Of a DNA stretch of 64,000 nt, positions 9,007 to 36,499 are shown one piece after another. The DNA is from an uncultured Limibaculum sp. (GTDB lineage Bacteria > Pseudomonadota > Alphaproteobacteria > Rhodobacterales > Rhodobacteraceae): NCBI GenBank assembly GCA_951813525.2, contig CATOTJ020000002.1, positions 196,954-260,953 on the forward strand, given 5' to 3'. The notes under the pieces are model-generated. The model searched no databases and was not told the DNA's origin. It saw nothing but the letters and a program-made list of their open reading frames with translations. The position numbers and the translations under genes were made by a program. Positions within the stretch are counted from its first letter, which is position 1, and every line of letters begins with the position of its first letter.

Positions 9007-9016
9007 AGGGCCGCAC

Positions 9017-13337: not shown

Positions 13338-13517
13338 ACATCGCCAAACCGGCAAAGGGACTCGTGGAAATCGGGTTCTGAGATATCGGCGAGGATACTG
13401 GCAGTTTAGAGATCTAGAGGCGTCTCAAACGTTACCGCGCATCCCTTAACCCATGGAATACACGGCGCTTTTCGTGCTGGAGGGGTGAGACCGACGTACG
13501 GAGAGAAAGCGTGGCGG
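13338..13517 (+). repeat. Right-end sequence of island A ending in att core TGGCGG (13512..13517); homologous to 36235..36414
   Basis: Both start ACATCGCCAAACCGG.AAAGGGACTCGTGGAAA and end GGAGAGAAAGCGTGGCGG. Confidence 0.85.
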
Positions 13518-13797
13518 TGGGCGCAGTCTGCTGCGAACCGGTCTCTGAATTCCCTGGTTGCAGGGAAATTGCAGGGAAAATCTCGGGAATCCGGGATTTG
13601 GCCACTAATTCGCTCGGCGCAGATTGAACGAAATCAATGACTTGCGCAGCGAATTCCCTAAACATCGGAGCAGGGAATTTTTTCTCGATTGCAGGGAACA
13701 TAGAACACTCGAAGTCGCTCAAACTGGATCTTTGGCGCCTTTGGCGCTAATAATCGGCGATGCGTCATCAGCTTGAAAGCACTTCGGAGTTACGATT

Positions 13798-14601
13798 ATG
13801 GGCAGCATGCTTCCAAAGGAGTTTTCCTTCAGAGAACCGTATTTGCAGGCAGCGGAGACTATCCGTCGTCACAAAGTGGCTCGTCGTCGCCAACTTGCGG
13901 CCGGCACAGAGACGAAGCGGACGCCAAGTTCGAGTCCAATCGACCGAGAGATCCAAAAGTTCAAAGATCCACAGAAACAGATCCCGCTGACCCTGGAGCT
14001 GCGTGTCAAAGGAACTCAGGCTTGGAGCGGTGACTTCTACATGACAGTCTACTCCCACATCGAGGCTGCCTTCACCGCCGCGGGCCTCATACTCGGTGGA
14101 GGTCGAGGTGAGTTTCGCCGTGAGCTGCAAGACATCCGCGATTGCCTTCAATCACGATTGATACGGTCAAACAGCGAGTTGATCGACTTACCGCTGAGTT
14201 GGTCGACCAAGCTCAATCGAGCCTTCCGCGAAGGGATCCTCCCAAACAGGCGACGGGAGCGGAGTCATTTCCTCATGCTCAAAGGAGGACGATCTGGTGA
14301 GCCGATCCGATTCGAGTTTTTCCGAGAAGAGGTTCAAGAGCTGATCAACCTGATTGAAAACGATCTCGCAGCGCTGCGCGGGATGGGCCAGGGGCGGAGC
14401 ACCGATCTTCGAAAGATCATCTTTGTGCGCAGGCTCGCAGCGTTTTGGATTGAGTTGACGGGGTGCCAACCGAGTTTCAAACTGCTCTCGCGCTTCGACG
14501 CCTTTCTAACGGCCGCCTGGCAGACGGGCTTCGAAAATGACAATGAACTGAGAGATGTTTGCTTCGAACGAGCGATGGCACATGTGAAGCAGGAAGAGTA
14601 G
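13798..14601 (+). CDS. Hypothetical protein (267 aa) at island left end
   Basis: Long ORF with protein-like composition; no family recognised. Confidence 0.55.
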   Translation: MGSMLPKEFSFREPYLQAAETIRRHKVARRRQLAAGTETKRTPSSSPIDREIQKFKDPQKQIPLTLELRVKGTQAWSGDFYMTVYSHIEAAFTAAGLILGGGRGEFRRELQDIRDCLQSRLIRSNSELIDLPLSWSTKLNRAFREGILPNRRRERSHFLMLKGGRSGEPIRFEFFREEVQELINLIENDLAALRGMGQGRSTDLRKIIFVRRLAAFWIELTGCQPSFKLLSRFDAFLTAAWQTGFENDNELRDVCFERAMAHVKQEE

Positions 14602-14831
14602 GCCTGCATCGGGAAATTTCCATTTCGCCCCCCCTGCCTAAACGCACAAACAAATAGACCCTCAGGCGCCACCTATTGTGGGTGAGCGGCTTTGCCAGGC
14701 CCGTCTGGCATCTGAGGGAAACCAATGTTCAAACGCCAAGACCGAATGTACGCGTTGCCCTGACCCCACGTTTCTTGTGAAGTCGATATCTGCGAGTCCC
14801 TGCGCTTTGTAGTTTTGCAGGGAGTTTCTCC

Positions 14832-15221
14832 ATGGAGCGCCTAACGGAGTTTCTCACAGACATCGGGTCGATAGTTGGGCCCCGTGGTCAGCGGCAATGG
14901 CCGGACGAGTTGAAGGCCCGGATTGTGGCTGAGACGCTTGAACCTGGGGTGACTGTAAACGAGGTCGCCCGTCGCTACGACATGCGGCCCAATCATCTGT
15001 CGTCTTGGCGACGGCTGGCGAAAGAGGGCAAGCTTGTGCTGCCCGCCGTGCCCGTGTCGGAACCAACGTTCGCACCGTTGATTATTGAAGAGCAACTGGA
15101 CCGTTCGGCGGAACCCGTGTGCACCAAGCTTGAGATCGTCTGCGGTGAAGTAGTGCTTCGGCTGGACGCCGAGACGCCCGCGGCGCGGGTCGCGGAGATC
15201 GTGCGGGCGTTGCGCGTATGA
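14832..15221 (+). CDS. tnpA: IS66 TnpA (HTH accessory protein)
   Basis: [29 protein letters not shown]. Confidence 0.9.
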
Positions 15222-15571
15222 TCTTCCCATCGAACCGGGTCCGGATTGTGGTGGCGACCAAACCCGTGGACTTCCGGAAAGGTCATGACGGTCTTGCTGC
15301 GCTGGTGAAGAATGAACTCAGGAAAGAGCCGTTCACCGGGACGGTGTTTGTGTTCCGTGCCAAGCGGGCCGATAGGCTGAAGCTCCTTTACTGGGACGGC
15401 ACAGGTCTTGTGATGACGTACAAACGGTTGGAGGAAACAACCTTCACCTGGCCCGCCATCCGCGATGGGTTGATGTCGCTGAACCATGCCCAGTTCGAGG
15501 CGTTGTTTGCCGGGCTCGACTGGCGGAAAGTGAAGGCTCTGGCGGCACGTCCGCCGACCGCGGCAGAGTGA
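15218..15571 (+). CDS. tnpB: IS66 TnpB accessory protein
   Basis: [27 protein letters not shown] motifs. Confidence 0.92.
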
Positions 15572-15625
15572 CTCGGGCATCCGATTGAACGGGTGGCAAA
15601 GCGCTGATTTTGATAGACCCCGGCC

Positions 15626-17200
15626 ATGTTGAGCGCAGCCGATCTCCCGAATGACATCGATGCTCTGAAGGCGATGGTTCTGGCTGCCGGCGGGCGCGAG
15701 GAACGCCATGTTATGCGCATCGCGCAGTTGGAAAAGCTGCTGACCGATGTCAAGCGCGCCCTCTTCGGGCACAAATCCGAGAAGGTCTGTCCGGACCAGC
15801 TTGAGTTGGCGCTCGAAGACATCGAGACAGCGGTCGAGACCCTCAAGGCAGCCGAAGAGGCCGACGAACTGGAGGTCATGGGTAAGCCGCGCTCGCGTAA
15901 GGCCAACCGGGGATCATTGCCCCGGCACTTGCCGCGCATCGAGGAAGTGATCGAGCCAGAAAGCACGACCTGCGACTGCGGCCACGAGCGGCATGTTATT
16001 GGCGAGGATGTCAGCGCACGACTGGATGTCGTTCCGGCGCAGTTCCGGGTAATCGTCACGCGTCGTCCGAGATATGCCTGCCGGTCCTGCGAGAGCGGGA
16101 TCGTGCAAGCCCCGGCACCGGCGCATCTGATCCCCGGCGGCATGCCGACCGAGGCAACAGTGGCCCATGTGATCGTCAGCAAGTACGCCGATCATCTCCC
16201 TTTGTATCGACAAGCGCAGATCTACAGCCGCCAGGGCATCGATCTTGATCGCTCCACCCTGGCGGCCTGGGTTGGGCGGGCAGCGTTCGAAATCCAACCG
16301 GTCTATGATGCCCTACTGGCAAACCTGAAGCGTTCTTCCAAGCTCTTCATGGACGAGACCACAGCACCGGTGCTCGACCCCGGCAGGCGCAAAACCAAGA
16401 CGGGGTTCTTCTGGGCGCTTGCCCGCGATGATCGACCATGGGGCGGGGACGATCCACCCGGCGTGGCCTTCACCTATGCGCCGGGACGGTCAGGGCAATA
16501 TGCCGAGAACATCCTCAAGGGCTTTGGCGGCACCCTGCAGGTCGATGGCTATTCAGGTTACAACAGGCTGCTCAAACGGCCCGGAGAGGATATCCAGCTG
16601 GCCTATTGCTGGGCCCACGCCCGGCGCAAGCTGCACGAGGTATCCCAGACCGGCACCACGCCCATTGCAGATGAAGGGCTGAAACAGATCGCCCGGCTAT
16701 ACCGGATCGAGAAGGACATCCGCGGTCACTCGCCCGAGGTGCGGTTGGCTGCTCGGCAGGAGCGGTCAAAGCCGATCATTGATGGTTTTGAACACTGGCT
16801 CACCGCCAACCGCGCCCGCGTCTCCGCCAAATCCCCGCTCGGCGAGGCCCTGAAGTATATCGCCAAATATTGGGACGGGCTAAACCTGTTCCAGACCGAC
16901 GGTCGGATCGAGATCGATTCAAATGCCATTGAACGCACCATTCGCCCCATCGCGCTGAACCGCAAGAATGCGCTCTTCGCCGGGCACGACAAAGGTGCAC
17001 AGAACTGGGCGATGATCGCTTCTCTAATCGAGACCTGCAAACTGAACGCCATCGATCCTCACACCTGGCTGACCGAGACATTGGCCGCTATCGTGCAGGG
17101 GCACAAACAATCCGATATCGACGCGCTCCTGCCATGGAACTACAATGGGACCGAGAAGGGGCACGGTCATGAGCATCATCGAATTGAAGGTCACGCTTGA
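15626..17200 (+). CDS. tnpC: IS66 TnpC DDE transposase
   Basis: Coiled coil, CDC/CRSC zinc ribbon, KYADHLPLYRQ, DET, CWAHARRK, ERTIR. Confidence 0.93.
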   Translation: MLSAADLPNDIDALKAMVLAAGGREERHVMRIAQLEKLLTDVKRALFGHKSEKVCPDQLELALEDIETAVETLKAAEEADELEVMGKPRSRKANRGSLPRHLPRIEEVIEPESTTCDCGHERHVIGEDVSARLDVVPAQFRVIVTRRPRYACRSCESGIVQAPAPAHLIPGGMPTEATVAHVIVSKYADHLPLYRQAQIYSRQGIDLDRSTLAAWVGRAAFEIQPVYDALLANLKRSSKLFMDETTAPVLDPGRRKTKTGFFWALARDDRPWGGDDPPGVAFTYAPGRSGQYAENILKGFGGTLQVDGYSGYNRLLKRPGEDIQLAYCWAHARRKLHEVSQTGTTPIADEGLKQIARLYRIEKDIRGHSPEVRLAARQERSKPIIDGFEHWLTANRARVSAKSPLGEALKYIAKYWDGLNLFQTDGRIEIDSNAIERTIRPIALNRKNALFAGHDKGAQNWAMIASLIETCKLNAIDPHTWLTETLAAIVQGHKQSDIDALLPWNYNGTEKGHGHEHHRIEGHA

Positions 17201-17747
17201 GTACATCGAGCCCGCCGTGAAGCGTACCCTGCTGGTGCCAGCCGATATCCGCCTCGACCGCCTGCATCTGACACTCCAGGCCGCAATGGGCTGGGCCAAC
17301 TCCCACCTCTACATGTTCGAGGCCGGCGGGGCGACCTGGGGGCTGCCCGATCCGGACTTCGGCGGCGATGATCTGCCTGACAACAATACCACCCTGGCCG
17401 AGTTGATCGAGGACACCGGCGCACGCACGGTCAATTATCTCTACGACTTCGGTGACAGCTGGGACCACCAGATCAAGATCGGCAAGATCAGCGATCCTGT
17501 CCCCGGCGAGCTCTACCCCCGCTTGACGGATATCGCTGGCCGGTGCCCGCCAGAAGATGTCGGCGGCTTCCCTGGATACGAAGAGTTCCTGGAAGCCATT
17601 GCAGATCCAAAGCACCCTGAACATGAGGATCTCAGAAGGTGGTACGGTGGCGACTTCGAGCCCAACACGCCAGATAGCGACGAACTTCGCCTTGAAGTTC
17701 TCAAGCTCGCAAAACGTTGGAAGCCAAAAATGAAGGCGCTTAACTGA
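17169..17747 (+). CDS. pRiA4b ORF-3 family (MM3350-like) passenger protein inside IS66
   Basis: LHLTLQAAMGWANSHLY, YLYDFGDSWDH, CPPEDVGGFPGY motifs; stop 2 bp before right IR. Confidence 0.85.
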   Translation: MSIIELKVTLEYIEPAVKRTLLVPADIRLDRLHLTLQAAMGWANSHLYMFEAGGATWGLPDPDFGGDDLPDNNTTLAELIEDTGARTVNYLYDFGDSWDHQIKIGKISDPVPGELYPRLTDIAGRCPPEDVGGFPGYEEFLEAIADPKHPEHEDLRRWYGGDFEPNTPDSDELRLEVLKLAKRWKPKMKALN

Positions 17748-17786
17748 CCAACGTGGGGTCAGGGCACCGCTTACGACCGAATACCA

Positions 17787-19229
17787 TTGCCATCGGAAAC
17801 ATCGGATACCAGCTGTAGCCCGGGGATTTCGCCCAAAGCCACCGTTCAACCGGTCGACAGCCTAAAACCCAACCCGCGCAACGCGCGCACGCATTCCAGG
17901 GCGCAGATCGCGCAGATCGCTGAGAGCATCTCGCAGTTCGGATTCACAAACCCGATCCTGATCGATGAGAACGGCGTGGTCCTTGCCGGGCATGGCCGTC
18001 TTGCTGCCGCGAAGACGTTGGGGATCGAAAAGGTTCCGGTCATTCAACTCGCCCATCTCAGTGACGTAGAGAAGCGGGCCTTTGTGCTGGCCGACAACAA
18101 GATCGCGCTGAACGCTGGCTGGGACGGTGAGATGCTCGCCGCGGAGCTTGGTGATCTGGCGGACTTGCTGCCGGATCTTGATGTCTCGTTTGATCTTGAG
18201 ATCACCGGCTTTCCGACTGGCGAGTCTGATCAGCTGCTCCTGGATCACGAGGCCGACGGGGAATCGCCCCCCGAGGAGGTGGATCTCAGCGTCTCATCAA
18301 TCTCCGTGAGCCAACAAGGCGACCTTTGGCAGCTTGGAAAGCACCGCCTTCTTTGCGGTGATGCACAGGATGGATCAGCGGTCACCCGTTTGCTTGGTGA
18401 CGCCAAGGCGGACATGGTCTTCACCGACCCGCCCTACAATGTCCCGGTGCAGGGCCATGTTGGCGGTCGCGGTGCGCGACGCCACAAGGAATTCGCCTTC
18501 GCATCAGGCGAGATGAGCCCGAAGGACTTTCGGGGTTTTCTCAAGACGTGCCTTGGGAATCTTCTGACGATCTCAAGCGCAAACGCACTCCATTACGTCT
18601 TCATGGATTGGCGCCATATCGAAGACCTGTTGCGCGTTGGCCGCAAGCTTGGCCTGGACCTCAAGAACATTTGTGTCTGGAACAAGACCACACCAGGCCA
18701 GGGATCGTTCTACCGCTCCGCTCATGAGCTCGTTGCGGTGTTTGCAAAACCCGGTGCCAGAGCGGCGAACAATATTGCTCTCGGCAAGCATGGCCGCAAC
18801 CGCACGAATGTCTGGACCTATGCCGGCGTGAACACCTTCCAGAAGGGGCCAGGCGCCGACCTCTCGGTGCATCCCACGGTCAAACCGATCTCCTTGGTCG
18901 CCGACGCAATCAAGGATGGATCGAAACGGGGGGCTATTGTGCTGGATCCGTTCCTCGGGTCCGGGACAACCCTGTTGGCAGCGGAGAAGGTTGGGCGGCG
19001 TGCCAGCGCCATCGAGTATGAGCCTGCATATGTCGACATCGCAGTTCGGCGTTGGCAGGCAATGACCGGCCGGGATGCCGTCCTGGTGGCCACCGGTGAC
19101 GCAGCCAAGTGCAGGGAACTGCCAAACGGTGGAGACCAGGGTCGCGCTATCGGATCGACTTTCAATGCTCTTGAGGTCCAGGCCACGGCCGCAGCCTTCA
19201 AGACCAAGGAGCGGGGCGATCATGACTGA
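17787..19229 (+). CDS. ParB-domain + N6A/N4C DNA methyltransferase; native start (ATG 14725) cut off by IS66
   Basis: PNPRNARTH/GFTNPILID/AGHGR ParB domain; DPPYN; DPFLGSGTT. Confidence 0.9.
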   Translation: MPSETSDTSCSPGISPKATVQPVDSLKPNPRNARTHSRAQIAQIAESISQFGFTNPILIDENGVVLAGHGRLAAAKTLGIEKVPVIQLAHLSDVEKRAFVLADNKIALNAGWDGEMLAAELGDLADLLPDLDVSFDLEITGFPTGESDQLLLDHEADGESPPEEVDLSVSSISVSQQGDLWQLGKHRLLCGDAQDGSAVTRLLGDAKADMVFTDPPYNVPVQGHVGGRGARRHKEFAFASGEMSPKDFRGFLKTCLGNLLTISSANALHYVFMDWRHIEDLLRVGRKLGLDLKNICVWNKTTPGQGSFYRSAHELVAVFAKPGARAANNIALGKHGRNRTNVWTYAGVNTFQKGPGADLSVHPTVKPISLVADAIKDGSKRGAIVLDPFLGSGTTLLAAEKVGRRASAIEYEPAYVDIAVRRWQAMTGRDAVLVATGDAAKCRELPNGGDQGRAIGSTFNALEVQATAAAFKTKERGDHD

Positions 19230-19695
19230 CCAATCAAAAAAGAGCGACCCCGAGACTGGTACCGAGGACGACGAGGTCGGCTACTGCAAGCCGCCCAAGG
19301 CAACCCGTTTCAAGCCAGGCCAAAGCGGCAATCCGGCAGGGCGCCGCAAACGTCCCAAAACGGTCTCCGATCAGCTCGAAGATATCCTGAAACGCAAGGT
19401 CCCGGTGACGCAGAGTGGCCGGGCGAAACGGATCCCGCTTCAGGAATTGATGCTGACCACGCTGGTCAACAATGCGGTGAAGGGAGATCTCGCGGCTTTG
19501 AAGGTCGTTATGGATCTCAAGTCCAGTCATGAGGGTGCCAATCGCGAAACGATCGACCTCAGCCTGCTCGCCTCGGAAAGCCAAGGCATCATCGAGAACT
19601 TTCTCTCAAACGCGACCGGGCCAGAAGACCGTGTGGACCGCACCAACGTCGATGAACCGATTGAAACAGGAGACCAAGATGACCATCAATCATAG
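19222..19695 (+). CDS. DUF5681 protein (candidate small terminase-like subunit)
   Basis: VGYCKPPKATRFKPGQSGNPAGR; overlaps MTase stop and terL start. Confidence 0.78.
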   Translation: MTDQSKKSDPETGTEDDEVGYCKPPKATRFKPGQSGNPAGRRKRPKTVSDQLEDILKRKVPVTQSGRAKRIPLQELMLTTLVNNAVKGDLAALKVVMDLKSSHEGANRETIDLSLLASESQGIIENFLSNATGPEDRVDRTNVDEPIETGDQDDHQS

Positions 19696-21142: not shown

Positions 21143-21436
21143 GTAGATGCTGCGAAAAAGACGGGGGCGAGGGTGACCGCCGTGTTTCAAAGGCGTCGGA
21201 ATCGTCCTGCCCCGGAACGACGTCGCCTCTGCACCCGATCTTGGATGTCGAACCAGACAACGGGGAGAGGCGATATGCGCCAACAATGACGTTCGTTCAT
21301 ACCGCAGCGAAAGACCACTTCGAGTCCAAACCACCGGCGACCGCATTGGAGTGGACTCAACATCTCGAAGGTAGAGCGGGCATTCGTTTGCGGTGCGCTA
21401 CTGGGACCTCCGCACGATACCTGCTGTAGTTCGTGT

Positions 21437-27717: not shown

Positions 27718-28937
27718 TGACCTGAGCCCCAAGTTTCCTCCGGCGTTCGGAGAGTCCTTGGTTTGGGTTTGATGGTGCTACGCTGCGATCCTGTCCACTT
27801 TTATCTTCTCTGCAAATTCCATGGGTGTCAAATTTCCCAGTGCCGAATGTGGTCTGTGCCGGTTGTAGTCAGTCCGCCATTCTTGCAGGCCGTCTCGGGC
27901 GTCGCTGAGCGACGTGAACAGGGTCTCGTTCAGAAACTCGTCCCGCAGCCTTCCATTGAAGCTTTCGATGAAGGCGTTCTGGGTCGGCTTGCCGGGCGCT
28001 ATGTAGTGCCATCCGACGCCGGTCTCCTGGCACCAACGCAGCACTGCCATGCTGGTCATCTCGGTTCCGTTGTCTGAGACGATGGTGTTGGGCAGACCGC
28101 GGCTTGCAGTGATCCTGCTCAACTCCCGCGTCATCCGAAGCCCCGACAGGGACGTGTCCGCGACCAAGGCAAGGTTTTCACGGGTGAAATCGTCCACGAC
28201 GGCCAGGATCCGAAACCGCCGTCCGTCTGTGAATCGATCAGACACGAAGTCCAGGCTCCAGCGTTGGTTCGGGCCATCGGGCATAACCATTGGCCGTCGT
28301 GTCCCCAAGGCGCGCTTCCTGCCGCCTCTGCGGCGCACCTGCAGCCGTTCTTCGGCATAGATCCGTCGGACTTTCTTGATGTTCACTTCGAAACCCTCCC
28401 GGCACAGCATGACGTGGATACGGCGGTATCCGAACCGGCGACGGTCACCGGCGATCCGTCGGATGGCCTCGCGCAGATCGACGTCTTCAACGCGGCGTGA
28501 CCGGTACCGCACCGTCGATCGGTCAATGTTCAGAGTGGCGCACGCCCGGCGCTCGCTGACACCGTGGGCATCCCGCAGATGCGCCACAGCCAGCCTCTTG
28601 GCACCAGGCGTCACCACTTTTTTGAGTTCACATCCCGAAGCATCGTGATGTCCAGCATCTGCTCGGCGACCAGCTTCTTCAGGCGGGAATTCTCGTCCTC
28701 GAGATGCCGCAGCCGTTTGGCGTCCGAAGGCTCCATCCCGCCGAACTTGGATTTGTACTTGTAGAACGTACCCTGGCTGATCCCATAACGGCGGCAAATG
28801 TCAGGGGCCCTCTCACCAGCTTCGTGCTCTTTAAGCATCTGGATGATCTGTTCGTCGCTGAATCTCGGCTTCATGTTTGGTCCTCTCTCAATGGAGAACT
28901 CTACCATTCCGTGGAGGAGATTCAGGGGCTCAGGTCA
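27718..28937 (-). mobile_element. Complete IS3-family (IS407-like) element; orfA 28611..28874, orfB ~27778..28614
   Basis: TGACCTGAGCCCC terminal IRs; A6G frameshift motif; DDE core; no target duplication visible. Confidence 0.93.
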
Positions 28938-29484
28938 CCGGCTGTTCGTTCCGCGTGCAGCGAAGGTCCGATTGCGGTCCGCCAGCACCTGTAAGATGAA
29001 AGTCTTCAATCGCGCAGAGATCCCAGTAGTCCACGACGGGCGAAGGTCCGGTTCTCCCTTGAGACTTCCAATCTTCCGCGATGCAGCATTCGTCAACAAG
29101 GGCTCCAACCAGACATCTCTTGCAGCGCAAGATCGCCGATTCCGCACGCTGCTTCCGTCGTCAGTTACGGCCCGCACCGGCCATTTGCCGGTGTCGTTGA
29201 TGCTGCGGTCGCGTCCCCGTTTCCCGCCATTCGCCGCGGCAGCGAAATCTTACTTGGTGACTTCGGCAGGTGTCGGGGACAAAGCGGAAATAGCGGGTTT
29301 AATAACCACGATTCCGCAAGTCGGGGATGATGTAAAAAAAGTCATTCCAGAACTGAATCAGTATTGGTTGAACACGTCACCAAAGACAATTTGTTCCAGT
29401 AAGGGCACTAAGGATGATATAATCCCCTCCAGAGACGGTTAAATAAACAGAAAATGTTCACCAATTTTTTATCGGAGACATAAT

Positions 29485-31119
29485 ATGGCGCACCATTTAC
29501 ACGTATGGTCCGACATTCCGGGGCATCGTTCCATATCTACCGAGGGTCCAGCCAAGGCGCACGCTGACAACGATCCAGATGGCGTGGCTATCGAAGTCCG
29601 TAGTTTCAAGGATTTCGAGAAGGCTTTGGGTGAATTGGCCTACGACGGATATCTGTTCGACCGCGCCGACATCCATTGCCACGGCAGCCCAGGAAAGATT
29701 TATCTTGGCCGTGACAAGGTCGGCTATGAAGACGTGGACGCGCTGCGCGCCAGCGGACACCAGAATGGCTACGGATCATTGTTCAAGGCCGACAGCATCT
29801 TCAAACTAGGGTCTGTGGACATTCATCTTGACGCGATGAGCGCAGCAGCGAGGTTCCAGCAGGCGGCGTAGCTGCAATCAGTTTTGTCGTACCGCGTGGC
29901 TATGCCTCTGAATTCCTTTATCTTTGCGAAGTAGTTTTCGACGAGATGCCGCCATTTGTAGACCTCAATGTCGTAGGCGCGCTTTATCTTTCGATTGCCC
30001 TTAGGCGGGATCACGGCGGTTGCGCCGCGCGCATCGAGTTCTTTCAGCAGCCAATTCGCGTCAAATGCCCTGTCCGCGAGCAGGGCATCGAACGAAACAT
30101 CTTTGATCAGCGGCGCGACACCCTTCATATCGTGCGCCTGTCCCGGCAGAAGCAGGAACCGCACCAGGTTCCCAAGCGCATCGACCAGCGCTACGATCTT
30201 GGTCGTCAGCCCGCCACGCGAGCGTCCGATGGCCTGAGCCTGAGCCCCCCTTTTGCGCCGGTGGCTTTCTGGTGAACCTGAACAATGGTGCCATCGATAA
30301 GCGCATATTCAAGGTCGGGGTCATCACTCACCGCCTTGAAAAGACTCTCGAAAACACCTGCTTTGGCCCATCGCCGGAAGCGCCGGAACTGGCTGTTCCA
30401 ATTTCCAAAAGCGGGCGGCAGGTCACGCCACGGTGACCCCGTGCGCACACGCCAGAACACAGCCTCCACAAACAGCCGGTTATTCTTCGCGGTCACGCCG
30501 CTGTCGCTGGCTTTGCCTGGAAGGTGGGGTTCAAGCCGCTGCCACAAAACATCTGTCACCACAAACCGCTGCTCGTTCATTCAAACCTCCGTTTCGAAAG
30601 TTTGAATCAGAAATCAGATCAAATGGGAATCCTGATTGTCCACGGACCCTAGTTGGATGCAATGTTGGCCAATATGCCGCAGGCGAATACTTCCTGACCA
30701 TTTTCGCTGAGGTCTTCGTTGGCCGGAACGGCGGCTGGGTCGGGGGCAACACTGGGCTGGGACTGAACACCGAGAACGCCCCTCATCCGTTCGGGAACTG
30801 GGTCTGGGCCCATGCGGCGGGTGGGGCGACAACAGGGATGTCCGGGCACAGCTGGCTGACCGATGCGTCGATCAAGAAGCGGTGCGAGGATGCCAGCAAC
30901 CTGCTGAAGCATCTGAAAAACCGATGGGGCAAACCTGTCACATTCGAGGTTGAAACCTTCATACTGGAGCGGATCAAAGTGGCGCGTCAACACCTAGCGC
31001 TGGCCTCGAGGGACCGGTTCAGCTTGCTTTATATCGCCTGCGAGCATCTGGACCATGCCGAAGCCCGGTTGAAGAGGATCGTATGGGAACAAAGTCACCT
31101 GTATTCCGATCGGCATTGA
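29485..31119 (+). pseudogene. DUF4347/caspase-like-fold hypothetical protein (~263 aa) split by IS5
   Basis: Removing IS plus one CTAG restores ...IHCHGSPG...IFKLVGCNVG... in frame. Confidence 0.7.
29810..30648 (-). mobile_element. IS5-family (IS427-like) element, intact
   Basis: IRs GGTC(T/C)GTGGACA; CTAG at 29806..29809 and 30649..30652; orfA 30206..30580, orfB to 29823, A4G6 slip. Confidence 0.93.
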
Positions 31120-31260
31120 ATTCTGAGCCCACCTCGATGCGGCCTCGGGTTGAATGGGCTCTAACCCGTCATCCATTGCACCGCCGGGATCTGATGTAAT
31201 GTCTCCTTGCCAACGTCTGGTTGGCAGGGTGGATGGGAGCTTCAACTCGGAAGATCCATC

Positions 31261-31893
31261 ATGCAAACACCAAACTTACCCGCCATTCGCCCTCAGCGCC
31301 CAGCCTGGAATAAGGGACGGCTGGTTGGTCAGAAACGCCCGTTGATGCCGAAACATGTCTGGGCCATCCGTGTTCGGCTTGAGATCGCAGAAAACCACCG
31401 TGACCTTGCCTTGTTCAACACCGCGATCGACAGCAAGTTGCGCGGACGCGATCTCGTGCGGCTCCAGGTGGCTGACGTCTTTGCAGCAGGACAAGTCAAG
31501 GAACGAACCTCGGTGCTGCAGAGTAAAACGCAGAAACCGGTCAAGTTCGAGCTGACCGAAGGCACGCGCAAATCGATTGCGCAGTGGCTGAAGGACCCTC
31601 GGATGACCGGGCAGGAGTTCCTATGGCCGGGCCGGTTCCACGAACCCGTGCATATCTCGACGCGCCAATACGCTCGTCTTGTCCGAGATTGGGTCCAGTC
31701 GATCGGCTTGGAGCCAAGCGCATTCGGCACGCATTCAATGCGCCGTACAAAGGTCGCGCAGATCTATCGTAAGACTGGGAATTTGCGAGCGGTGCAACTT
31801 CTGCTCGGACACACAAAGATGGACAGCACTGTTCGTTACCTGGGTGTCGAGCTCGAAGATGCACTGGCAATTTCCGAAGCCGTCGAGCTCTGA
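31261..31893 (+). CDS. Minimal tyrosine recombinase (210 aa, catalytic domain only)
   Basis: SKLRG (R), HSMRR (HxxR), LLGH, TVRY; N-terminal WNKGRLVGQK motif. Confidence 0.9.
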   Translation: MQTPNLPAIRPQRPAWNKGRLVGQKRPLMPKHVWAIRVRLEIAENHRDLALFNTAIDSKLRGRDLVRLQVADVFAAGQVKERTSVLQSKTQKPVKFELTEGTRKSIAQWLKDPRMTGQEFLWPGRFHEPVHISTRQYARLVRDWVQSIGLEPSAFGTHSMRRTKVAQIYRKTGNLRAVQLLLGHTKMDSTVRYLGVELEDALAISEAVEL

Positions 31894-31900
31894 AGAGGAT

Positions 31901-31923
31901 GGGCCGCTCGTTGTGGGCGGCCC
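31901..31923 (+). terminator. GC hairpin after recombinase
   Basis: GGGCCGC-N9-GCGGCCC; weak U tail. Confidence 0.45.
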
Positions 31924-32437
31924 TTAGCAGACCATGGCGCTTCGCTCAACGAATGACAGGAGTCAGCCCAGACTTAAATCCCCCTTCTGACGGATGGGCT
32001 GCGAAACGCCCATTCGCTGGCTGCACATGGTGTTCCCGGACTTATCTCAAAAGCGGTCATACAAGCGCCATAGGCCCGACTGAAACCGTCAGATGTCGGC
32101 TTCGAGCCCATATTGACTGAGGCTGCATCTGGGCTGGCCGGCATTAAGGGTGCCAGACCGGACATTCTACTGGCCTGGGTTACAAGAAGACCTGAACCAC
32201 TGCAGACATCATGGATCGAGTAGACAACTGGACGGATCAGCAACACCTTAGGGCACATCTTCGTTTCCAGCTCCATGTCAACGGTGCAATGCAATTGGAA
32301 AAGACGAATTCGGGCATCGCGGTCTATCTGAATTGAGACGTTGAGCGCACATCAAGAAGATGAGAAACGCAAAATCCGTCGACAATTGATGTCGTAGGCC
32401 ACAAGCTCGGGAGCACTTTTAAAAAGGGGTTGAATCT

Positions 32438-33019
32438 ATGAAGGCCATTCTCAAAATCAGCGCCTTTGTGGCTGTCTTTTTTGCATCGTCTGCAGCTTGG
32501 GCCGCTTGCACAACAGATGTCAGAAAAGACGATTTGACAGATGAGCAGGTTCAAAGCCTGTACGACTGCGTGAAAAGCGAGCTGCGAGATGGTTATGCAT
32601 CAAGAGGCGAACCTTTGACGAAAGAATACCAAGGATGGAGAGCAGCTACAAAGCTTCCTGGTATTTCACGCGTTCACGGCAAGCGCTTCCTGATGATCTT
32701 TGCTAACAATGTTGCGTTCGACGAATATGTCAAATTCTCTCAATATCGCGGGGCTATGCCTGTCGGATCAATTCTCGCAATGGAAAGCTTCAACGTGACC
32801 AAAAGGGGCAAGGTTAAGCGCGGCCCACTGTTCCTGATGACAAAAGTTGAAACCGGCGGTGAGCAAGCAACATTTGGCAACTGGCTTTACATGGCTTTCA
32901 GGCCAAGTGGCAAAACCATGAAAGTCAAGCAAAGCCTTTGCCATCGTTGCCACGGCAATTTTGTCGAACAGGATTCACTGGGTTATCCATGGGAAGAAAA
33001 CCGGGTTTCAACTAACTAA
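32438..33019 (+). CDS. Cytochrome P460 / c'-beta family protein
   Basis: Signal peptide, YQGWR, P.GSILAMES, GNWLY, C-terminal CHRCH. Confidence 0.8.
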   Translation: MKAILKISAFVAVFFASSAAWAACTTDVRKDDLTDEQVQSLYDCVKSELRDGYASRGEPLTKEYQGWRAATKLPGISRVHGKRFLMIFANNVAFDEYVKFSQYRGAMPVGSILAMESFNVTKRGKVKRGPLFLMTKVETGGEQATFGNWLYMAFRPSGKTMKVKQSLCHRCHGNFVEQDSLGYPWEENRVSTN

Positions 33020-33788
33020 GACCATTCGCCTTTTGATGGAGCATTCAAAGGGTTACGCACCTACGCTTACGACGCATGACGGTTCATGGTACTTCCCGCC
33101 AGTAGGCCGGACGGCAGCTTTCGGGGGAGGATCGTGAATCCGAGTTTCATGCTCGACGGCGGCTTTGTCCCGATTGTGTGAATTCGCTTCGCCCTGACCT
33201 TCGCACTCGCCGCGAATGTCGGCAAACGAGAACGCGACCGCAACGATCAGAGGAGTTGGCAAACCGCAGTAACGAACCGTCCACGCTTTTCGACCATGTC
33301 CGCTTCCTGCGCGTTGCTGACGTTTAACGCGTGCTCGTCGAACTTCTGCTCGCCAGAAATGTCGGAGATAAATCTGAGCGTCAACACTCACGCTGTCGGA
33401 TGTCTGCTCTAGCAGTTCTACCAAGATCGGTGTTGCGGAGCAGCGAACGGCTCCTTCCCGCCAAACTCCCATAATGCGCCACGGTTTTGCGAACATTTCG
33501 CACACAATTTTACCCAGTTTCGGCTCATTCCCGATCATACTTGTGAAGGTCTGGTTAGCCGTTCGGTCGATCGCGCCGCTCGAACAGTGCTCGCGCCACC
33601 AAAAGCACATCGGTATGCTCAAAATCCTCGAGTTCTTCCCTGAATGGACTGGACTTCAGCGTCACGTGAAGCGTGAGTGTTCTTGCGCTGAGGGGCGGGC
33701 ATTCCCCCGACCTGGCACAGGCCCGGAAAACCCGGGCTCGTCTCAGTAGGAGCAGCGGGATTGGCCCGCGGCCGACACGGAGACGAAC

Positions 33789-34145
33789 ATGACCACGCAA
33801 ACCAAGCCCGCCACGAACCGGTCCCGCAGCAAGCCTGCGTCGCAGCCAGCAATACGAACGGCAGTGAAGGCGCGGCGTTCGCCGAAGGCAGACTCGGACG
33901 CCAAGGTTGAGAACGCCGCGAAGCCCCAGACCAAACGGGCGCAGTTGATCGCGCTTTTAGGCGCAAAGACGGGTGCTGACATCGAAGCCCTGAGCAAGAC
34001 GCTCGGCTGGCAGCAGCATTCGATCCGCGCCGCGCTTACTGGCTTGCGCAAGGCGGGCTTCGAGATCGCCCGCGAAACACCCGCCAGCGGCGGCGCGGCG
34101 CGCTACCGGATCACGGCCAGGCCGGAACCGGTCGCCGCACAATGA
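33789..34145 (+). CDS. DUF3489 winged-helix protein
   Basis: TKRAQLIALL...LGWQQHSIRAALTGLRK...YRI. Confidence 0.8.
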   Translation: MTTQTKPATNRSRSKPASQPAIRTAVKARRSPKADSDAKVENAAKPQTKRAQLIALLGAKTGADIEALSKTLGWQQHSIRAALTGLRKAGFEIARETPASGGAARYRITARPEPVAAQ

Positions 34146-34579
34146 CGACCTTGGAGGACAAGCAAGAGGGGGTGGCCCGCAAGATTGCGGGCCTCGCCGA
34201 TCTCGAGCGCGATGAACTGGCCGCACGCTGGGAAAAGGTCTTCGGGCGCCGTGCCCCGTTCAAGCTGTCGCGAACGATAATCGAGAAGGCATTGGCCCAT
34301 GAGATCCAGTGCAAGGCCTTTGGCGGGCTCTCGCGATCGACGCGTAAGGCCCTGCGCTTGGCTCTTGGCGCCGATCCCAACCCGGCTATCACTCGAACTG
34401 CCACACCGGGCGCCCGCCTGATCCGGGAATGGAACGGGCGGACCTATGAGGTCGATGTCGTCGAAGGCGGTTTTGAATGGGAGGGGCAGACCTGGCGCTC
34501 GCTCAGCCGCATCGCCCGCGAGATAACCGGAGCGAACTGGTCTGGCCCTAGGTTCTTCGGCCTGACCGGCAAGTCATGA
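34142..34579 (+). CDS. DUF2924 protein
   Basis: PGARLIREWNG, SLSRIAREITGANWSGPRFFGL. Confidence 0.85.
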   Translation: MTTLEDKQEGVARKIAGLADLERDELAARWEKVFGRRAPFKLSRTIIEKALAHEIQCKAFGGLSRSTRKALRLALGADPNPAITRTATPGARLIREWNGRTYEVDVVEGGFEWEGQTWRSLSRIAREITGANWSGPRFFGLTGKS

Positions 34580-36234
34580 GCCGGGCGCAAAAGATCCGCT
34601 GCGCGATCTACACCCGCAAATCCACCGAAGAGGGCTTGGACCAGGAGTTCAATTCACTGGATGCCCAGGCCGAGGCCTGGGCGGCCTACATCGCCAGCCA
34701 GAAGCACGAGGGTTGGATCGCGCTTCCGAACAGCTACGATGACGGTGGGATTTCTGGGGGATCGCTGGAACGGCCTGCGCTGCAGCGCCTGCTGGCCGAC
34801 ATCGACGCCAGCAAGATCGATCGGGTGGTGGTCTACAAGGTTGATCGGCTGACACGATCTCTGACCGACTTCTCGAAGCTGGTCGAGCGCTTCGATGCGG
34901 CCAACTGCTCCTTCGTCTCGGTGACGCAATCGTTCAACACCGCAACCAGCATGGGGCGGTTGACGCTCAACATGCTGCTGTCGTTCGCGCAATTCGAGCG
35001 CGAAGTCACAGCAGAGCGCATCCGCGACAAGATCGCTGCGTCGAAGCGCAAGGGCATTTGGATGGGTGGGAGTGTCCCCTTAGGATACGATGCCAAGGAC
35101 AGAACACTGGTGACGAACGAGGGCGAAGCCCAGACGGTTCGGCAGCTGTTTGCGCTCTATGACCAACACGGCTCGGTGCGGGCAGTGGCCGCGGAAGCCG
35201 ATCGCTTACGTCTCACAACGAAACAGCGGGTCGGGAGCAATGGCGAGATCACCGGCGGCACATCGTTCAGCCGCGGCCACATCTACCACCTGCTGTCGAA
35301 CCCGATCTATATCGGGCGCATCCGGCATCGTCAGGAAACCTATGACGGACTGCATTCGGGAATCATCGCGCAGGATCTCTGGGACCGGGTTCAAGCAAAG
35401 CTTGCCGCCAACGCGGCCCGTTCCAAACGCCGCGAAACCGCAGCATCACCTTCTCCCCTGGTTGGAAAGTTCTTCGATGAGATCGGTGATGCTCTGACGC
35501 CATCGCACGCCGTCAAGAATGGGCGGCGTTATCGCTACTACATCTCGCACCGTCTGATCGCACGGAGCGGCGAGGACCAAATCGATGGATGGCGCCTGCC
35601 AGCCAAAACGCTGGAAGAGGCAGTTGCGGGATTGATCACAACGTTCCTGAAAGATCCGAAGACACCATCAAAAGTGATTAGGGATGCAGATGTCGCGGAG
35701 ATCGCCAGCGCACGACGCATCTTCGAACAGATCGAGAAGGCCCTTGGATCGCCCGACGCCGATACCATTCTGACCACGCTGATCTGCAAAGGCAAAGTTG
35801 CAGCTAGCGACCTGAGCATTGTTCTGGATACATCGAACTTAGCATCCCACCTCCAGTTATCCGTCGCCCGGCTCAACCCAGATGCCGTGATCCTGAACAG
35901 CTGCTTCGTGCTTCGCAAACGCGGTGTCGAAGCCAGGATGATCCTGAACGATCAGGCACCAGTCGTTGACAAACTGCTGTTGCACACCACGGCCCTTGGC
36001 CATGCGTGGCTTGACGATCTCAAGCAGGGCATCACGATCAAACAGATCGCCGAGCGGGAAAACATCACCCGCCAGCGCGTTGCAGCTATTATCGAACTGG
36101 CATTCCTCGCACCTGACATCGTTCAAGACATCGTGGAAGGTCGCCAGGACCCTGCTCTCACGACTGACGCCCTGCTTAAATCCCAGCGCCCAATGCACTG
36201 GGATCAGCAGCGCGCGCGAGTCTCCAGACTCTGA
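34576..36234 (+). CDS. Large serine recombinase (island integrase), 552 aa
   Basis: YTRKS catalytic Ser, VYKVDRLTRS, FAQFERE, recombinase domain, PLGY. Confidence 0.93.
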   Translation: MSRAQKIRCAIYTRKSTEEGLDQEFNSLDAQAEAWAAYIASQKHEGWIALPNSYDDGGISGGSLERPALQRLLADIDASKIDRVVVYKVDRLTRSLTDFSKLVERFDAANCSFVSVTQSFNTATSMGRLTLNMLLSFAQFEREVTAERIRDKIAASKRKGIWMGGSVPLGYDAKDRTLVTNEGEAQTVRQLFALYDQHGSVRAVAAEADRLRLTTKQRVGSNGEITGGTSFSRGHIYHLLSNPIYIGRIRHRQETYDGLHSGIIAQDLWDRVQAKLAANAARSKRRETAASPSPLVGKFFDEIGDALTPSHAVKNGRRYRYYISHRLIARSGEDQIDGWRLPAKTLEEAVAGLITTFLKDPKTPSKVIRDADVAEIASARRIFEQIEKALGSPDADTILTTLICKGKVAASDLSIVLDTSNLASHLQLSVARLNPDAVILNSCFVLRKRGVEARMILNDQAPVVDKLLLHTTALGHAWLDDLKQGITIKQIAERENITRQRVAAIIELAFLAPDIVQDIVEGRQDPALTTDALLKSQRPMHWDQQRARVSRL

Positions 36235-36408
36235 ACATCGCCAAACCGGGAAAGGGACTCGTGGAAACCGGGTTCTGAGATTGCGTCGAGAACATTGGCA
36301 GATCTGAGACCCAGACGAGTCTCAAACCTCACCGCCGACCCCCTAAGCCACGGAATACACGGTACTATTCGTGTTGAGGGGGTGAGATCGGCGTGCGGAG
36401 AGAAAGCG

Positions 36409-36499
36409 TGGCGGGCAGGATGGGATTCGAACCCACGAGACCCTTTTGGGGCCTACTCCCTTAGCAGGGGAGCGCCTTCGACCACTCGGCCACCTGCCC
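36409..36499 (-). tRNA. tRNA-Ser(GCT)
   Basis: GGGCAGG/CCTGCCC acceptor stem, CT-GCT-AA loop, long variable arm, GGTTCGAATCC, encoded CCA. Confidence 0.96.

Follow-up and report, generated by a model that had tools for sequence, protein, structure and literature searches.

A capsid-less family of alphaproteobacterial integrative elements with its own terminase module: a candidate satellite-like hitcher

What use does a chromosomal island have for a full-length terminase large subunit (TerL) when it encodes no capsid to fill? The question is raised by E2, a bounded mobile island of 22.9 kb that adjoins tRNA-Ser at positions 13518-36414 of the window, that is, the whole 64,000-nucleotide stretch of uncultured Limibaculum sp. 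DNA analysed here. Its order is gene X, ParB-methyltransferase, DUF5681, TerL, a 12.6-kb cargo slot, DUF3489, DUF2924, a large serine recombinase (LSR) and tRNA-Ser. We show that E2 is one copy of a widespread alphaproteobacterial family of integrative elements, whose compact core of ~7 kb comprises a packaging module, an integration module (DUF3489, DUF2924 and the LSR, which targets the 3' end of a tRNA gene for insertion) and a phased CAGGGAA array, and which lacks capsid, portal, tail, lysis and recognisable replication genes. The family goes back to a single origin, a tailed phage with the order ParB-methylase, DUF5681, TerL, portal, and then diversified under purifying selection. Judging from gene content and sequence comparison, we regard it as the likeliest reading, though about an even call, that these elements are satellite-like hitchers, which would use their own terminase to load their DNA into the capsids of another phage.

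The borders of E2 are formed by the following features:

11546-13517, + strand: E1, remnant of an older related element (DUF2924 tail, disrupted LSR', downstream arm)
11546-11606, + strand: DUF2924 tail of E1
11607-12150 and 12780-13337, + strand: pieces of the E1 LSR' (three-frame translation, tblastn fragments)
13516-13518: left end of E2, an attP-like joint marking the limit of similarity to the right end (36414)
36235-36414, + strand: right arm, from the LSR stop to the crossover, with the tRNA 3' end in its last 6 nt
36409-36499, - strand: tRNA-Ser(GCT), the integration target

An exact 19-bp repeat, CGGAGAGAAAGCGTGGCGG, is present at 13499-13517 and 36396-36414, its right copy sharing 6 nt with the end of tRNA-Ser(GCT), and the likeness between the two ends of E2 breaks off at 13517/13518 and 36414/36415. 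A simple att duplication at 13517 was rejected, since CGGAGAGAAAGCGTGGCGG is the tail of a 217-bp repeat (13301-13517 versus 36198-36414, 84% identical), the left copy of which consists of the 3' end of a disrupted second LSR gene (11607-13337) and its downstream arm; because the repeat includes this LSR end, position 13517 is the joint between two serially inserted elements. Hence, the bounded 22.9-kb island at tRNA-Ser described in the original prediction holds as a bounded unit, but on its left it is joined to a degraded second copy (11546-13517). In that copy, the middle of LSR' is replaced by an ~18-copy repeat (12072-12785); the first part of E1 shares 97% DNA identity with 34515-34814, the last part is 76-84% identical, and read depth at the remnant is 1574 versus 88. 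This tandem remnant had been overlooked before, as had the IS66 insertion and the CAGGGAA array described below.

The packaging module consists of three genes:

17787/17838-19229, + strand: ParB_N + N6_N4_Mtase fusion (Pfam; PHROG 498)
19219-19695, + strand: DUF5681 protein, in the small-terminase position (Pfam; PHROG 26239)
19652/19679-21142, + strand: TerL (Terminase_6C; Pfam, PHROG)

Pfam confirmed the core genes that had been named from the letters of the DNA (ParB-methylase, DUF5681, TerL, DUF3489, DUF2924 and LSR), and the end overlaps claimed for the first three are real, the methylase stop (19229) lying beyond the DUF5681 ATG (19219) and the DUF5681 stop (19695) beyond the TerL start (19652/19679). 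The ParB-methylase joins a ParB-N domain to a beta-class N6A/N4C DNA methyltransferase, whose DPPY and FLGSG motifs are intact; its sequence matches in the PDB are CcrM, DpnA, RsrI and Spo0J. In TerL, the ATPase motifs PPRSLKS and IIIDDP and the nuclease motif (D329, E387, D457, D460) are intact. Judged by gene position alone, DUF5681 is a candidate small terminase (TerS); its N-terminal basic motif GxPPxxxxFxxGxSGNPxGRPKG is near-invariant in alignments, a DUF5681 match occupies the same slot between ParB-methylase and TerL in the phage relative L137, and its AF2 model matched no PDB fold, solved TerS folds included. As predicted, portal, capsid, tail, lysis and replication genes were absent from E2 when its listed ORFs were compared with Pfam and PHROGs, and tblastn queries taken from the closest relatives among phages (portal, MuF, capsid and protease) gave no match there.

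On either side of these genes, E2 carries a variable upstream slot, an insertion sequence, cargo and the integration module:

13798-14601, + strand: gene X, an orphan ORF of 267 aa in a variable slot just 5' of the packaging genes
14748-17774, + strand: IS66, with inverted repeats and an 8-bp target duplication, GACCGAAT (Pfam)
14832-15221, 15218-15571 and 15626-17200, + strand: IS66 tnpA, tnpB and tnpC (Pfam)
17145-17747, + strand: PRiA4_ORF3 passenger in IS66 (Pfam)
21143-33788: cargo slot, 12.6 kb, from TerL to DUF3489
21771-24944: cargo, cadherin/Big_9 repeat protein, 1057 aa
25004-25938: cargo, IS5 remnants
26707-27096: cargo, cytochrome c
27242-27772: cargo, DUF772 fragment
27778-28797, - strand: cargo, IS3 orfB
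about 29343-30667: cargo, high-copy repeat
31207-31893: cargo, short tyrosine recombinase
32438-33019: cargo, cytochrome P460-like gene
33789-34145, + strand: DUF3489 protein, first gene of the integration module (Pfam, PHROG, synteny)
34142-34579, + strand: DUF2924 protein, always directly 5' of the LSR (Pfam, PHROG)
34576-36234, + strand: LSR (Resolvase + Recombinase), 552 aa, intact (Pfam, PHROG)

Gene X deserves its description as an orphan, having no Pfam, PHROG or PADLOC match, one close homologue only and a poor AF2 model (pLDDT 47), and in other lineages its slot is filled by unrelated families (hhalign probability <1%). IS66, where read depth is twofold and unitigs end, separates gene X from the ParB-methylase; it may uncouple the packaging genes of this copy from the upstream region, which counts against the hitcher reading. 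The ~12 kb that had been taken for exchangeable cargo do occupy a slot that varies among relatives, from ~0.3 kb to >10 kb and frequently with defence-type genes, but in the window this slot is crowded with IS debris (IS5, IS1182 and IS3 remnants). The window copy is thus IS-damaged and otherwise intact. The same DUF2924-LSR pairing is reported for Wolbachia phage WO (PMC10299305).

Is the absence of structural genes a peculiarity of this copy? Among 250 fetched loci, 230 carry a TerL of the window's clade, and a portal or capsid homologue was found in none of these 230, of which 115 extend at least 3 kb and 68 at least 9 kb downstream of TerL. The ParB-methylase-DUF5681-TerL triad is present in 156 of the 230, most of the others being truncated contigs; a Pfam search of 100 ORFs of at least 250 aa, located up to 7 kb downstream of TerL, matched 144 families, with no structural family among the 25 listed. 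Compact copies of ~7 kb (6-8 kb) include L027, L040, L063, L089, L091, L101, L103 and L148, and the clade loci devoid of structural genes span 41-75% TerL identity. Only L137, L138, L142, L145, L153, L154, L160 and L165 have portal, MuF, ClpP and HK97 capsid genes downstream of TerL; these portal-linked TerLs are 35-43% identical to that of the window and basal in a neighbour-joining tree. A split between 69 LSR-linked and 8 portal-linked TerLs has a bootstrap of 99/100. The best TerL of isolated phages is ~35% identical, and the best among 50,697 phage records (38.7%) comes from an unannotated 5.4-kb faecal scaffold. Moreover, 51 positions, among them Walker A, Walker B and the acidic nuclease residues, are at least 97% conserved in 146 TerLs, and dN/dS ranges from 0.05 to 0.33 for TerL, ParB-methylase, DUF5681 and LSR. 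The original prediction had proposed a search for structural genes in syntenic genomes, a TerL phylogeny and an assessment of selection on the terL catalytic residues; their outcomes (systematic absence of portal and capsid, a separate capsid-less TerL clade, and purifying selection on the TerL catalytic residues and on all core genes) agree with it, and the gene set is a real recurrent element rather than the wreck of a single prophage. No description of the family was found in the searchable literature.

The source of the module is evident from temperate siphophages. In phages, a packaging module with a ParB-methylase ahead of the terminase is an established design, the 'ParB-Tls locus' (PMC6536676), and siphophages with this locus (Paracoccus prophages; IMG/VR contig L137) share with our family the order ParB-methylase, small subunit, TerL and, in 16 Paracoccus prophages, LSR integrases (PMC6536676). 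Unlike in the family, portal, MuF, protease, HK97 capsid, tail, lysis and replication genes follow in these phages, and the TerLs of the family form a separate clade. Evidently, 'ParB-Tls' siphophages with an LSR are its ancestor.

Just inside the left end of E2 lies a further shared part:

13548-13700, + strand: phased CAGGGAA array, candidate terminase recognition (pac) site

Its copies start at 13550(-), 13561(+), 13572(+), 13671(+) and 13692(+), with spacings of 11, 11, 99 and 21 bp. The layout is repeated in relatives, at 10 copies/kb versus 0.15/kb elsewhere; 53 of 171 scanned sequences, the window included, hold at least 3 copies per 250 bp, as do again L027 and L148. The orientation pattern and the 11/11/~99/21 spacing are kept while the gene X family and the LSR target change, and whichever of the two gene-order types is considered, the array lies 30-250 bp in from one terminus. 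That such an array adjoins the attachment core, and that different bacterial orders conserve it, is a new observation; in the phage relatives, the exact motif was never seen as an array. The pac site of phage P1 comprises two clusters of short repeats ~90 bp apart, and a phage-linked adenine methylase controls its use; the likeness is one of layout only; motif and proteins differ. A replication origin or an accessory site for recombination is an equally good reading of the array: a similarly phased array inside the replication initiator gene of phage L137 looks like origin iterons. In about one third of the LSR-bearing loci, the LSR lies directly 5' of the array in chromosomal contigs, an arrangement unexpected for an integrated LSR element unless copies are in tandem, and one that counts against the hitcher reading.

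The element is mobile, as seen from the tRNA 3' end facing the LSR 3' end in 10 loci (the window and nine others, five tRNA types), from 2-3 divergent copies in some genomes, and from a depth of 13 at the element-to-tRNA junction versus 85 in the flank in run X2. No circular or concatemeric contig occurs among the 250 loci, the reads of the strain itself show neither an excision joint nor a raised copy number, and no RNA coverage was found; these results count against the hitcher reading. If the elements are hitchers, a helper phage would make procapsids, and the DUF5681 protein, as small terminase, would recognise the CAGGGAA array as a pac site, where TerL would cut before pumping element DNA through the helper portal into the helper procapsids. 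The ParB-methylase would modify DNA around the time of packaging, either protecting it from restriction in the next host or licensing the pac site, like adenine methylation at P1 pac, and in the recipient cell the LSR would integrate the element at a tRNA. The lineage-variable gene X would be the best candidate for a helper-sensing or regulatory component. Further points weigh against this scheme: the borrowed portal must accept a foreign TerL, and headful packaging would be expected to need concatemers, yet the element has no replication gene.

Among known satellites, PICIs/SaPIs are likewise small integrated islands without capsid or tail genes that combine packaging-specificity genes with accessory or defence cargo and depend on helper particles, a dependence that is proposed for the present family. 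They differ in having a tyrosine integrase, a primase/replicase with its own origin, an Stl/AlpA-type regulator and at most a TerS of their own, using the helper's TerL, whereas our family has an LSR with DUF2924 and DUF3489, a full-length TerL and a ParB-methylase, and no replication gene. The cf-PICIs do carry their own TerS and TerL (bioRxiv 10.1101/2022.09.08.507074), but they encode capsid, portal, protease and connector and steal tails only; the present family has no structural genes. Prochlorococcus tycheposons resemble it in tRNA-gene integration, variable cargo and, in some, a serine recombinase, and some members are PICI-like, with TerS or major capsid protein; however, their hallmarks, replication genes (primase, helicase) and tyrosine recombinases of one particular clade, are both missing here, and no TerL is reported for them (bioRxiv 10.1101/2020.12.28.424599). 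Thus, the earlier interpretation survives as to a recurrent capsid-less element type with its own packaging module, but its tycheposon analogy fails on the replication hallmark genes. VEIMEs, small integrative elements of which some have serine recombinases and TerS, were recovered from marine virus particles (PMC9618062) and are defined by that recovery; their TerL is assigned to the helper phage, and no ParB-methylase-DUF5681-TerL core is described (PMC9618062). In these two papers on other satellites, the terminase genes are TerS and TerL is ascribed to the helper phage (PMC9618062, bioRxiv 10.1101/2020.12.28.424599).

Other explanations have to be weighed against the hitcher reading. That the family represents decayed prophages, in which a temperate siphophage lost its middle and kept its two ends, with packaging genes and integrase, would suit the phage counterparts of every core gene, the ordinary presence of ParB-methylase, terminase and LSR in Paracoccus prophages (PMC6536676) and the IS elements riddling the window copy. 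We nevertheless consider it extremely improbable, given that this gene set, devoid of structural genes, is shared by 230 loci over the whole range of 41-75% TerL identity, in a well-supported clade that excludes every portal-linked TerL, with genes under purifying selection and a common cis array whose exact motif the phage relatives do not show as an array; independent decay is not expected to leave the same seven parts hundreds of times. At the family level, decay is largely refuted by the 250-locus comparison. It is also very unlikely that TerL serves a task other than capsid filling, such as the processing or resolution of intermediates in the element's own replication or recombination, or non-viral DNA export. 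Such a task would fit the lack of any linked helper, portal or capsid in the 230 loci and the likeness of the array to the origin iterons of L137, but we know of no established capsid-independent role of TerL, the ATPase and nuclease centres are conserved as in packaging enzymes, and the genes are ordered as in a phage packaging module (PMC6536676).

Packaging of the host chromosome in place, or use of gene transfer agent (GTA) particles, seems to us distinctly unlikely: with the array at its own end pointing inward, packaging would begin at the integrated copy, the terminase filling helper or GTA heads with the element and neighbouring chromosome. The terminal position of the array in both gene-order types, the lack of a replication gene and of any circular form found, the tandem copies of the window, which would serve as built-in concatemers, and the near confinement of the family to Alphaproteobacteria, carriers of RcGTA-like agents, all suit this possibility. 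However, the heads of Rhodobacterales GTAs have room for about 4 kb and even the minimal element measures ~7 kb, which makes GTA use unlikely, and DNA packaged from an integrated copy has no intact attP, so that the LSR could not reintegrate it. Unlikely as well, though a little less so, is a phage-interference island, a defence in which the module is kept to sabotage the packaging of an infecting phage; possible means are the cutting of phage concatemers or the occupation of procapsids, with the methylase protecting self DNA and spread following some other route, the LSR island being the vehicle only. Relatives carry defence-like cargo beside the module (HEPN_Swt1+DUF499, CTD6/MC2, SACS/HATPase, Zeta toxin), the pairing of a methylase with an ATP-dependent nuclease resembles restriction-modification logic, the triad occurs without an LSR within 10 kb at many genomic loci, and helper terminases are known targets of satellites and prophages, which interfere with them (PMC11417361, bioRxiv 10.1101/2025.02.27.640495). 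Yet TerL, DUF5681, DUF3489 and DUF2924 have no PADLOC match and the methylase matches generic Type II models only, a conserved terminal cis array is expected for self-packaging and not needed for interference, and the compact 7-kb copies link the module tightly with the LSR module, suggesting one unit of transfer. Interference and self-transfer are compatible with each other.

The element spans positions 13518-36414 of the window, and its features, together with those at its left edge, are the following.

Features of the element and its left edge (domains from Pfam, tRNA from ARAGORN)
11607-13337: second, disrupted large serine recombinase gene (LSR'), following the final 60 nt of a DUF2924 gene
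13499-13517 and 36396-36414: exact 19-bp repeat CGGAGAGAAAGCGTGGCGG, the right-hand copy overlapping the last 6 nt of the tRNA
13798-14601: orphan ORF (gene X)
17787/17838-19229: ParB_N and N6_N4_Mtase domains (ParB-methylase)
19219-19695: DUF5681
19652/19679-21142: Terminase_6C (large terminase subunit, TerL)
33789-34145: DUF3489
34142-34579: DUF2924
34576-36234: large serine recombinase (LSR), 552 aa, Resolvase and Recombinase domains
36409-36499, minus strand: tRNA-Ser(GCT)

Pfam confirmed each of the domains named in the original prediction, the genes for the methylase, DUF5681 and TerL indeed overlap at their ends, and searches with Pfam, PHROGs and tblastn bore out the absence of structural, lysis and replication genes from the window element. 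Hence, the element is real and its coordinates are right. A terminase and an integrase beside an attachment site are a prophage-type feature, and an LSR that adjoins this site, with element ends set where similarity stops, is a feature of LSR elements. The methylase retains intact DPPY and FLGSG motifs; its C-terminal part resembles CcrM, DpnA and RsrI, and its N-terminal part resembles Spo0J. Neither DUF2924 nor DUF3489 matched a PDB sequence. Pfam, PHROGs and PADLOC returned no match for gene X; a single close homologue was found, and the AF2 model of gene X (pLDDT 47) was too poor for a structure search. The interval between gene X and the methylase holds an IS66 element (14748-17774) with IS66-type terminal inverted repeats, an 8-bp target duplication (GACCGAAT), twofold read depth and a PRiA4_ORF3 passenger gene; without it, gene X would end approximately 210 bp before the methylase, near the spacing seen in relatives. 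The 12.6 kb of cargo from TerL to DUF3489 encode a 1057-aa cadherin/Big_9 repeat protein, cytochrome c, a cytochrome P460-like protein and a short tyrosine recombinase, along with IS5, IS1182 and IS3 remnants.

We also revised the left end, where a simple att direct repeat was rejected in favour of a tandem joint with a degraded second LSR. The 19-bp repeat is the end of a 217-bp repeat (13301-13517 and 36198-36414, 84% identical), and LSR' lies upstream of it; hence, 13517 is where the wreck of an older element meets the present one. This joint has the composition of an attP, i.e., an LSR-side arm, a crossover and a far arm. The first ~540 nt of LSR' are 97% identical to the intact LSR and the last ~550 nt 76%, its middle being replaced by a repeat with about 18 copies in the genome. 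Within LSR', the 714 bp at 12072-12785 reach a read depth of 1574 against 88 in the flank (~18x), and this segment is probably a fragment of a high-copy IS. Further to the left, a fragment at 11400-11545 resembles the N-terminus of a putative IS110-family transposase (38603-39622) and abuts the truncated DUF2924 tail, which indicates that the older element was cut off there. The window copy is thus a somewhat damaged family member beside the wreck of an earlier element.

TerL has more than 8000 database relatives, and scans confirmed 429 TerL-related stretches in species-representative genomes, 574 in IMG/VR and 568 in JGI metagenomes. From each of these three collections 80 loci were fetched, and contexts from the encoding contigs were added. 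The resulting clade set comprised 230 loci, counted without duplicates, in which TerL shares at least 41% identity with the window TerL and is not portal-linked; at least 3 kb of sequence downstream of TerL was available in 115 of them and at least 9 kb in 68. The full triad of ParB-methylase, DUF5681 and TerL was visible in the fetched sequence of 156 of the 230 loci, and the DUF2924/LSR module in 83. None of the 230 carried homologues of the portal, MuF, protease or capsid genes of the nearest phages. When 100 ORFs of 250 aa or longer from the 7 kb that follow TerL were surveyed with Pfam, the matches included DUF968, ERF, dehydrogenases, transporters and transposases, with no structural family among the 25 listed of the 144 Pfam families matched. 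Compact copies of about 7 kb (e.g., L027, L063, L089, L103 and L148) consist of an array of CAGGGAA repeats, gene X, ParB-methylase, DUF5681, TerL, DUF3489, DUF2924 and LSR.

Portal-family genes followed TerL in eight IMG/VR contigs (35-43% TerL identity), which are predictions and not particle evidence. Most of these also carry MuF or ClpP with an HK97-type capsid, and one (L165) combines a P22-type portal with a capsid of another family; in another, L137, the order is ParB-methylase, DUF5681, TerL, portal. The portal-linked phage TerLs are basal in a neighbour-joining tree, and a split that sets all 69 LSR-linked TerLs apart from all eight portal-linked ones received 99/100 bootstrap support. 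The best TerL of an isolated phage was ~35% identical, and the best among 50,697 phage records (38.7%) came from an unannotated 5.4-kb faecal scaffold. VEIMEs are defined by recovery from virus particles as a unit or concatemer, and the only hint in this direction is that such a 5.4-kb scaffold from human faecal samples, MT839917, is filed as 'Bacteriophage sp.'. The tree split and the restriction of structural genes to basal relatives argue that the family descends once from a phage and subsequently diversified without a capsid. The original prediction had named routine carriage of structural genes by homologous elements, i.e., a decayed prophage, as its refutation; the comparison gave no such result, and we reject a decayed prophage at the family level given the absence of structural homologues from the 230 loci and the 99/100 split. 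Judged by sequence comparison, the proposal of a class that lacks a capsid but brings its own terminase stands up to the comparative tests set out there.

Several loci showed particular arrangements around this core. In Bradyrhizobium-type loci (L039, L045, L047, L048, L060, L031 and L052), TerL is followed by a trio of an XRE-like HTH protein, a YqaJ-like exonuclease (named on sequence alone) and ERF/DUF968, a recombination module absent from the window copy. The cargo beside the core is defence-like in the close relatives L168, L169 and L170, comprising SACS/HATPase_c with a Zeta toxin, a 1103-aa HEPN_Swt1+DUF499 protein and a CTD6/MC2 conflict-system pair. A 21-kb Methylobacterium locus (L059) carries the triad twice in opposite orientation (480-3527 and 8162-11338), one TerL being split. 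The assemblies of L002, L003, L015 and L170 break 0.2-2 kb downstream of TerL, which is consistent with a hypervariable cargo slot or with several structural forms coexisting there.

Conservation and substitution patterns bear on whether the core is maintained. Among 146 in-clade TerLs, 51 positions are at least 97% conserved, including a Walker A-like PPR..KS, the Walker B DD, a QR motif and four acidic residues of the nuclease. In close pairs, Nei-Gojobori dN/dS was 0.05-0.19 for TerL, 0.09-0.24 for the methylase, 0.08-0.33 for DUF5681 and 0.08-0.15 for the LSR. Both lines of evidence place terL under purifying selection with its catalytic residues kept, as the original prediction required.

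With regard to mobility, in 10 loci the LSR and a tRNA gene point at each other with 54-629 bp between their 3' ends (five Ser, two Gln, and one each of Val, Met and Thr), and several genomes hold two or three divergent copies of the element. In a second sample of the same organism (read run X2), the unitig joining element and tRNA had a depth of 13 compared to 85 for the right flank, which suggests that only some cells of that sample hold the element at the tRNA. In the strain matching the window the element stands at single-copy depth, and no excision joint was present in its reads. No joints at 13517 or 36414 were found in runs X1 and X2, where the unitig graph is tangled at the tRNA, and no fetched contig had the terminal overlaps of a circular form. 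RNA runs linked to this species by label match only yielded no contig on the element.

The original prediction missed the CAGGGAA array, which is a conserved DNA site. Between 13517 and gene X there are five copies, at 13550(-), 13561(+), 13572(+), 13671(+) and 13692(+), and a sixth, inverted copy with one mismatch at 13652. In Rhodobacterales relatives, the motif, its orientation pattern and its spacing (11, 11-12, ~99 and 21 bp) are found again ahead of gene X, where CAGGGAA reaches 10 per kb compared to 0.15 per kb elsewhere in the same loci. The pattern was also found in Hyphomicrobiales, Sphingomonadales and distant IMG/VR contigs; at least three copies per 250 bp occurred in 53 of the 171 sequences scanned, window included, and L027 and L148 keep the full layout. 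The motif stays constant while gene X changes among families without detectable homology and the LSR changes its tRNA target. In a second gene-order type (L013, L169 and L157), with an inverted LSR module, the array separates the tRNA from the LSR 3' end. Since the array there adjoins an LSR 3' end, it is unlikely to be simply the promoter or operator of gene X. In both gene-order types it lies 30-250 bp inside one terminus of the integrated element. The only exact TGCAGGGAA outside the array is at 19110-19118, inside the 3' end of the methylase gene and ~100 bp before the start of DUF5681.

The exact motif did not occur as an array in the phage relatives. In L137, GAAACGTTTC palindromes form an array of similar phasing within a gene that precedes a DnaC-like loader; at 7111-7345, within a 268-aa ORF, pairs of GAAACGTTTC are 11-12 bp apart and groups ~100 bp apart. 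From its sequence, this array looks like origin iterons of the lambda-O type, just upstream of the ParB-methylase. Hence, the CAGGGAA array could be an origin or an accessory site for recombination, and we do not accept it as a certain pac. The pac site of phage P1 consists of two repeat clusters ~90 bp apart with a linked adenine methylase, and its likeness to the array and methylase lies in layout only.

DUF5681 occupies the slot of a small terminase subunit (TerS), and a basic motif at its N-terminus is nearly invariant. No PDB sequence was hit in a profile search, and Foldseek returned no significant PDB match for the AF2 model of DUF5681 (pLDDT 76); hence, DUF5681 stays a TerS by position only, and a proven TerS was rejected for want of a fold or sequence link to a solved small terminase. 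In the phage collection, tblastn with DUF5681 matched only MT839917.

We consider there to be an even chance that the element is a hitcher that brings its own terminase and borrows the capsids of a helper. DUF5681 would recognise the CAGGGAA repeats as a pac site, where TerL would cleave before loading the DNA into procapsids of a helper phage; modification of the DNA at packaging would fall to the ParB-methylase, and the LSR would integrate it in the next cell. The variable gene X is a natural candidate for a helper-specific sensor or regulator, for which the diverse repressors of SaPIs offer a model. More tentatively, and with slightly less than even confidence, we propose a new class of satellite possessing both terminase subunits and a packaging-linked methylase but neither capsid nor replication genes. 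Its pac-type array at the terminus, beside attP, would allow excised, tandem or even integrated copies to be loaded into helper procapsids; such satellites would be widespread in Alphaproteobacteria and shuttle defence and metabolic cargo. Several results speak against the hitcher: no fetched contig was circular, no replication gene was found, DUF5681 showed no link to a solved small terminase, and the comparable array of L137 looks like an origin. A further one is that in about one third of the LSR-bearing loci, the LSR lies directly upstream of the array in chromosomal contigs, as it does at 13517. Such an arrangement could arise from tandem or serial occupancy, but insertion into an attR site is not expected of LSRs.

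Among rival readings, an interference or defence island would accord with the defence-like cargo of relatives, but the core proteins match no PADLOC model other than generic Type II methylases. Alternatively, the terminase could package the flanking chromosome in place or use the particles of a gene transfer agent (GTA); however, GTA heads in Rhodobacterales hold ~4 kb and are too small. Finally, the terminase might serve a role unrelated to capsids.

Of the known systems, a PICI-type satellite is the one that the hitcher would most resemble in operation, yet the element is not a PICI. Instead of the tyrosine integrase at one end of PICIs and SaPIs it has the serine recombinase, and its short tyrosine recombinase (31207-31893) sits inside the cargo, not at an end. 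In place of their own primase/replicase and origin, no replication domain was found in the window or the compact relatives, and an AlpA/Stl-type module is absent. It shares tRNA/tmRNA integration with tycheposons, but no primase or helicase was found in it, so that it lacks their replication hallmarks; it is likewise not a cf-PICI, since the capsid, portal, protease and head-tail connectors that these encode with TerS/TerL are absent. GTAs combine a structural cluster with packaging of random host DNA and no self-transfer; in contrast, the element has no structural genes but does have an LSR, tRNA targets and multiple divergent copies per genome. The portal, major capsid, tail and lysis genes of a prophage are absent from the window and the 230 clade loci. 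What the element does match is the phage 'ParB-Tls' locus, with a ParB-domain/DNA-modification gene directly upstream of the terminase, for which DNA modification at packaging was earlier proposed (PMC6536676). The DUF2924-LSR pair is also found in Wolbachia phage WO (PMC10299305). The full-text literature searched, of incomplete coverage, held no description of the element, which is absence of evidence only.

The satellite families compared here take TerL from the helper or, as in cf-PICIs, encode it with their own capsid. If the proposed mechanism is true, the element would represent a third strategy, bringing the motor and stealing the shell, and would pose the testable question of how a foreign TerL docks on a helper portal. 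It would also provide a transfer mechanism for hundreds of tRNA-linked islands with defence and metabolic cargo in Rhodobacterales, Hyphomicrobiales and Sphingomonadales, which at present count as 'incomplete prophages'. A useful packaging and integration toolkit (LSR, att site, candidate pac array and terminase) could be made of the compact 7-kb core, and the ParB-methylase would allow the long-standing idea of a coupling between DNA modification and packaging to be tested.

Repeats were also observed in the cargo and to the right of the tRNA. The cadherin/Big_9 protein contains 411-bp internal tandem repeats (22677-24026, 93% identical), whose copy number likely varies between strains. Positions 29343-30667 are a very high-copy repeat, with a word depth of 1477-3309 in two runs against ~90 for the neighbours. 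The cytochrome P460-like segment (32075-33171) has roughly twofold depth and, in both runs, a joint leading from 33171 back to 32075 across 37 inserted letters, which points to an assembly-collapsed tandem duplication or a small circle. To the right of the tRNA, a 51-aa fragment of a serine recombinase N-terminus (45685-45837, minus strand) is 55% identical to the LSR, an IS5-like stretch (45004-45074) is similar to 25364-25434, and the putative IS110-family gene on the minus strand (38603-39622) is named on resemblance only; together, these remains mark an insertion hotspot there too.
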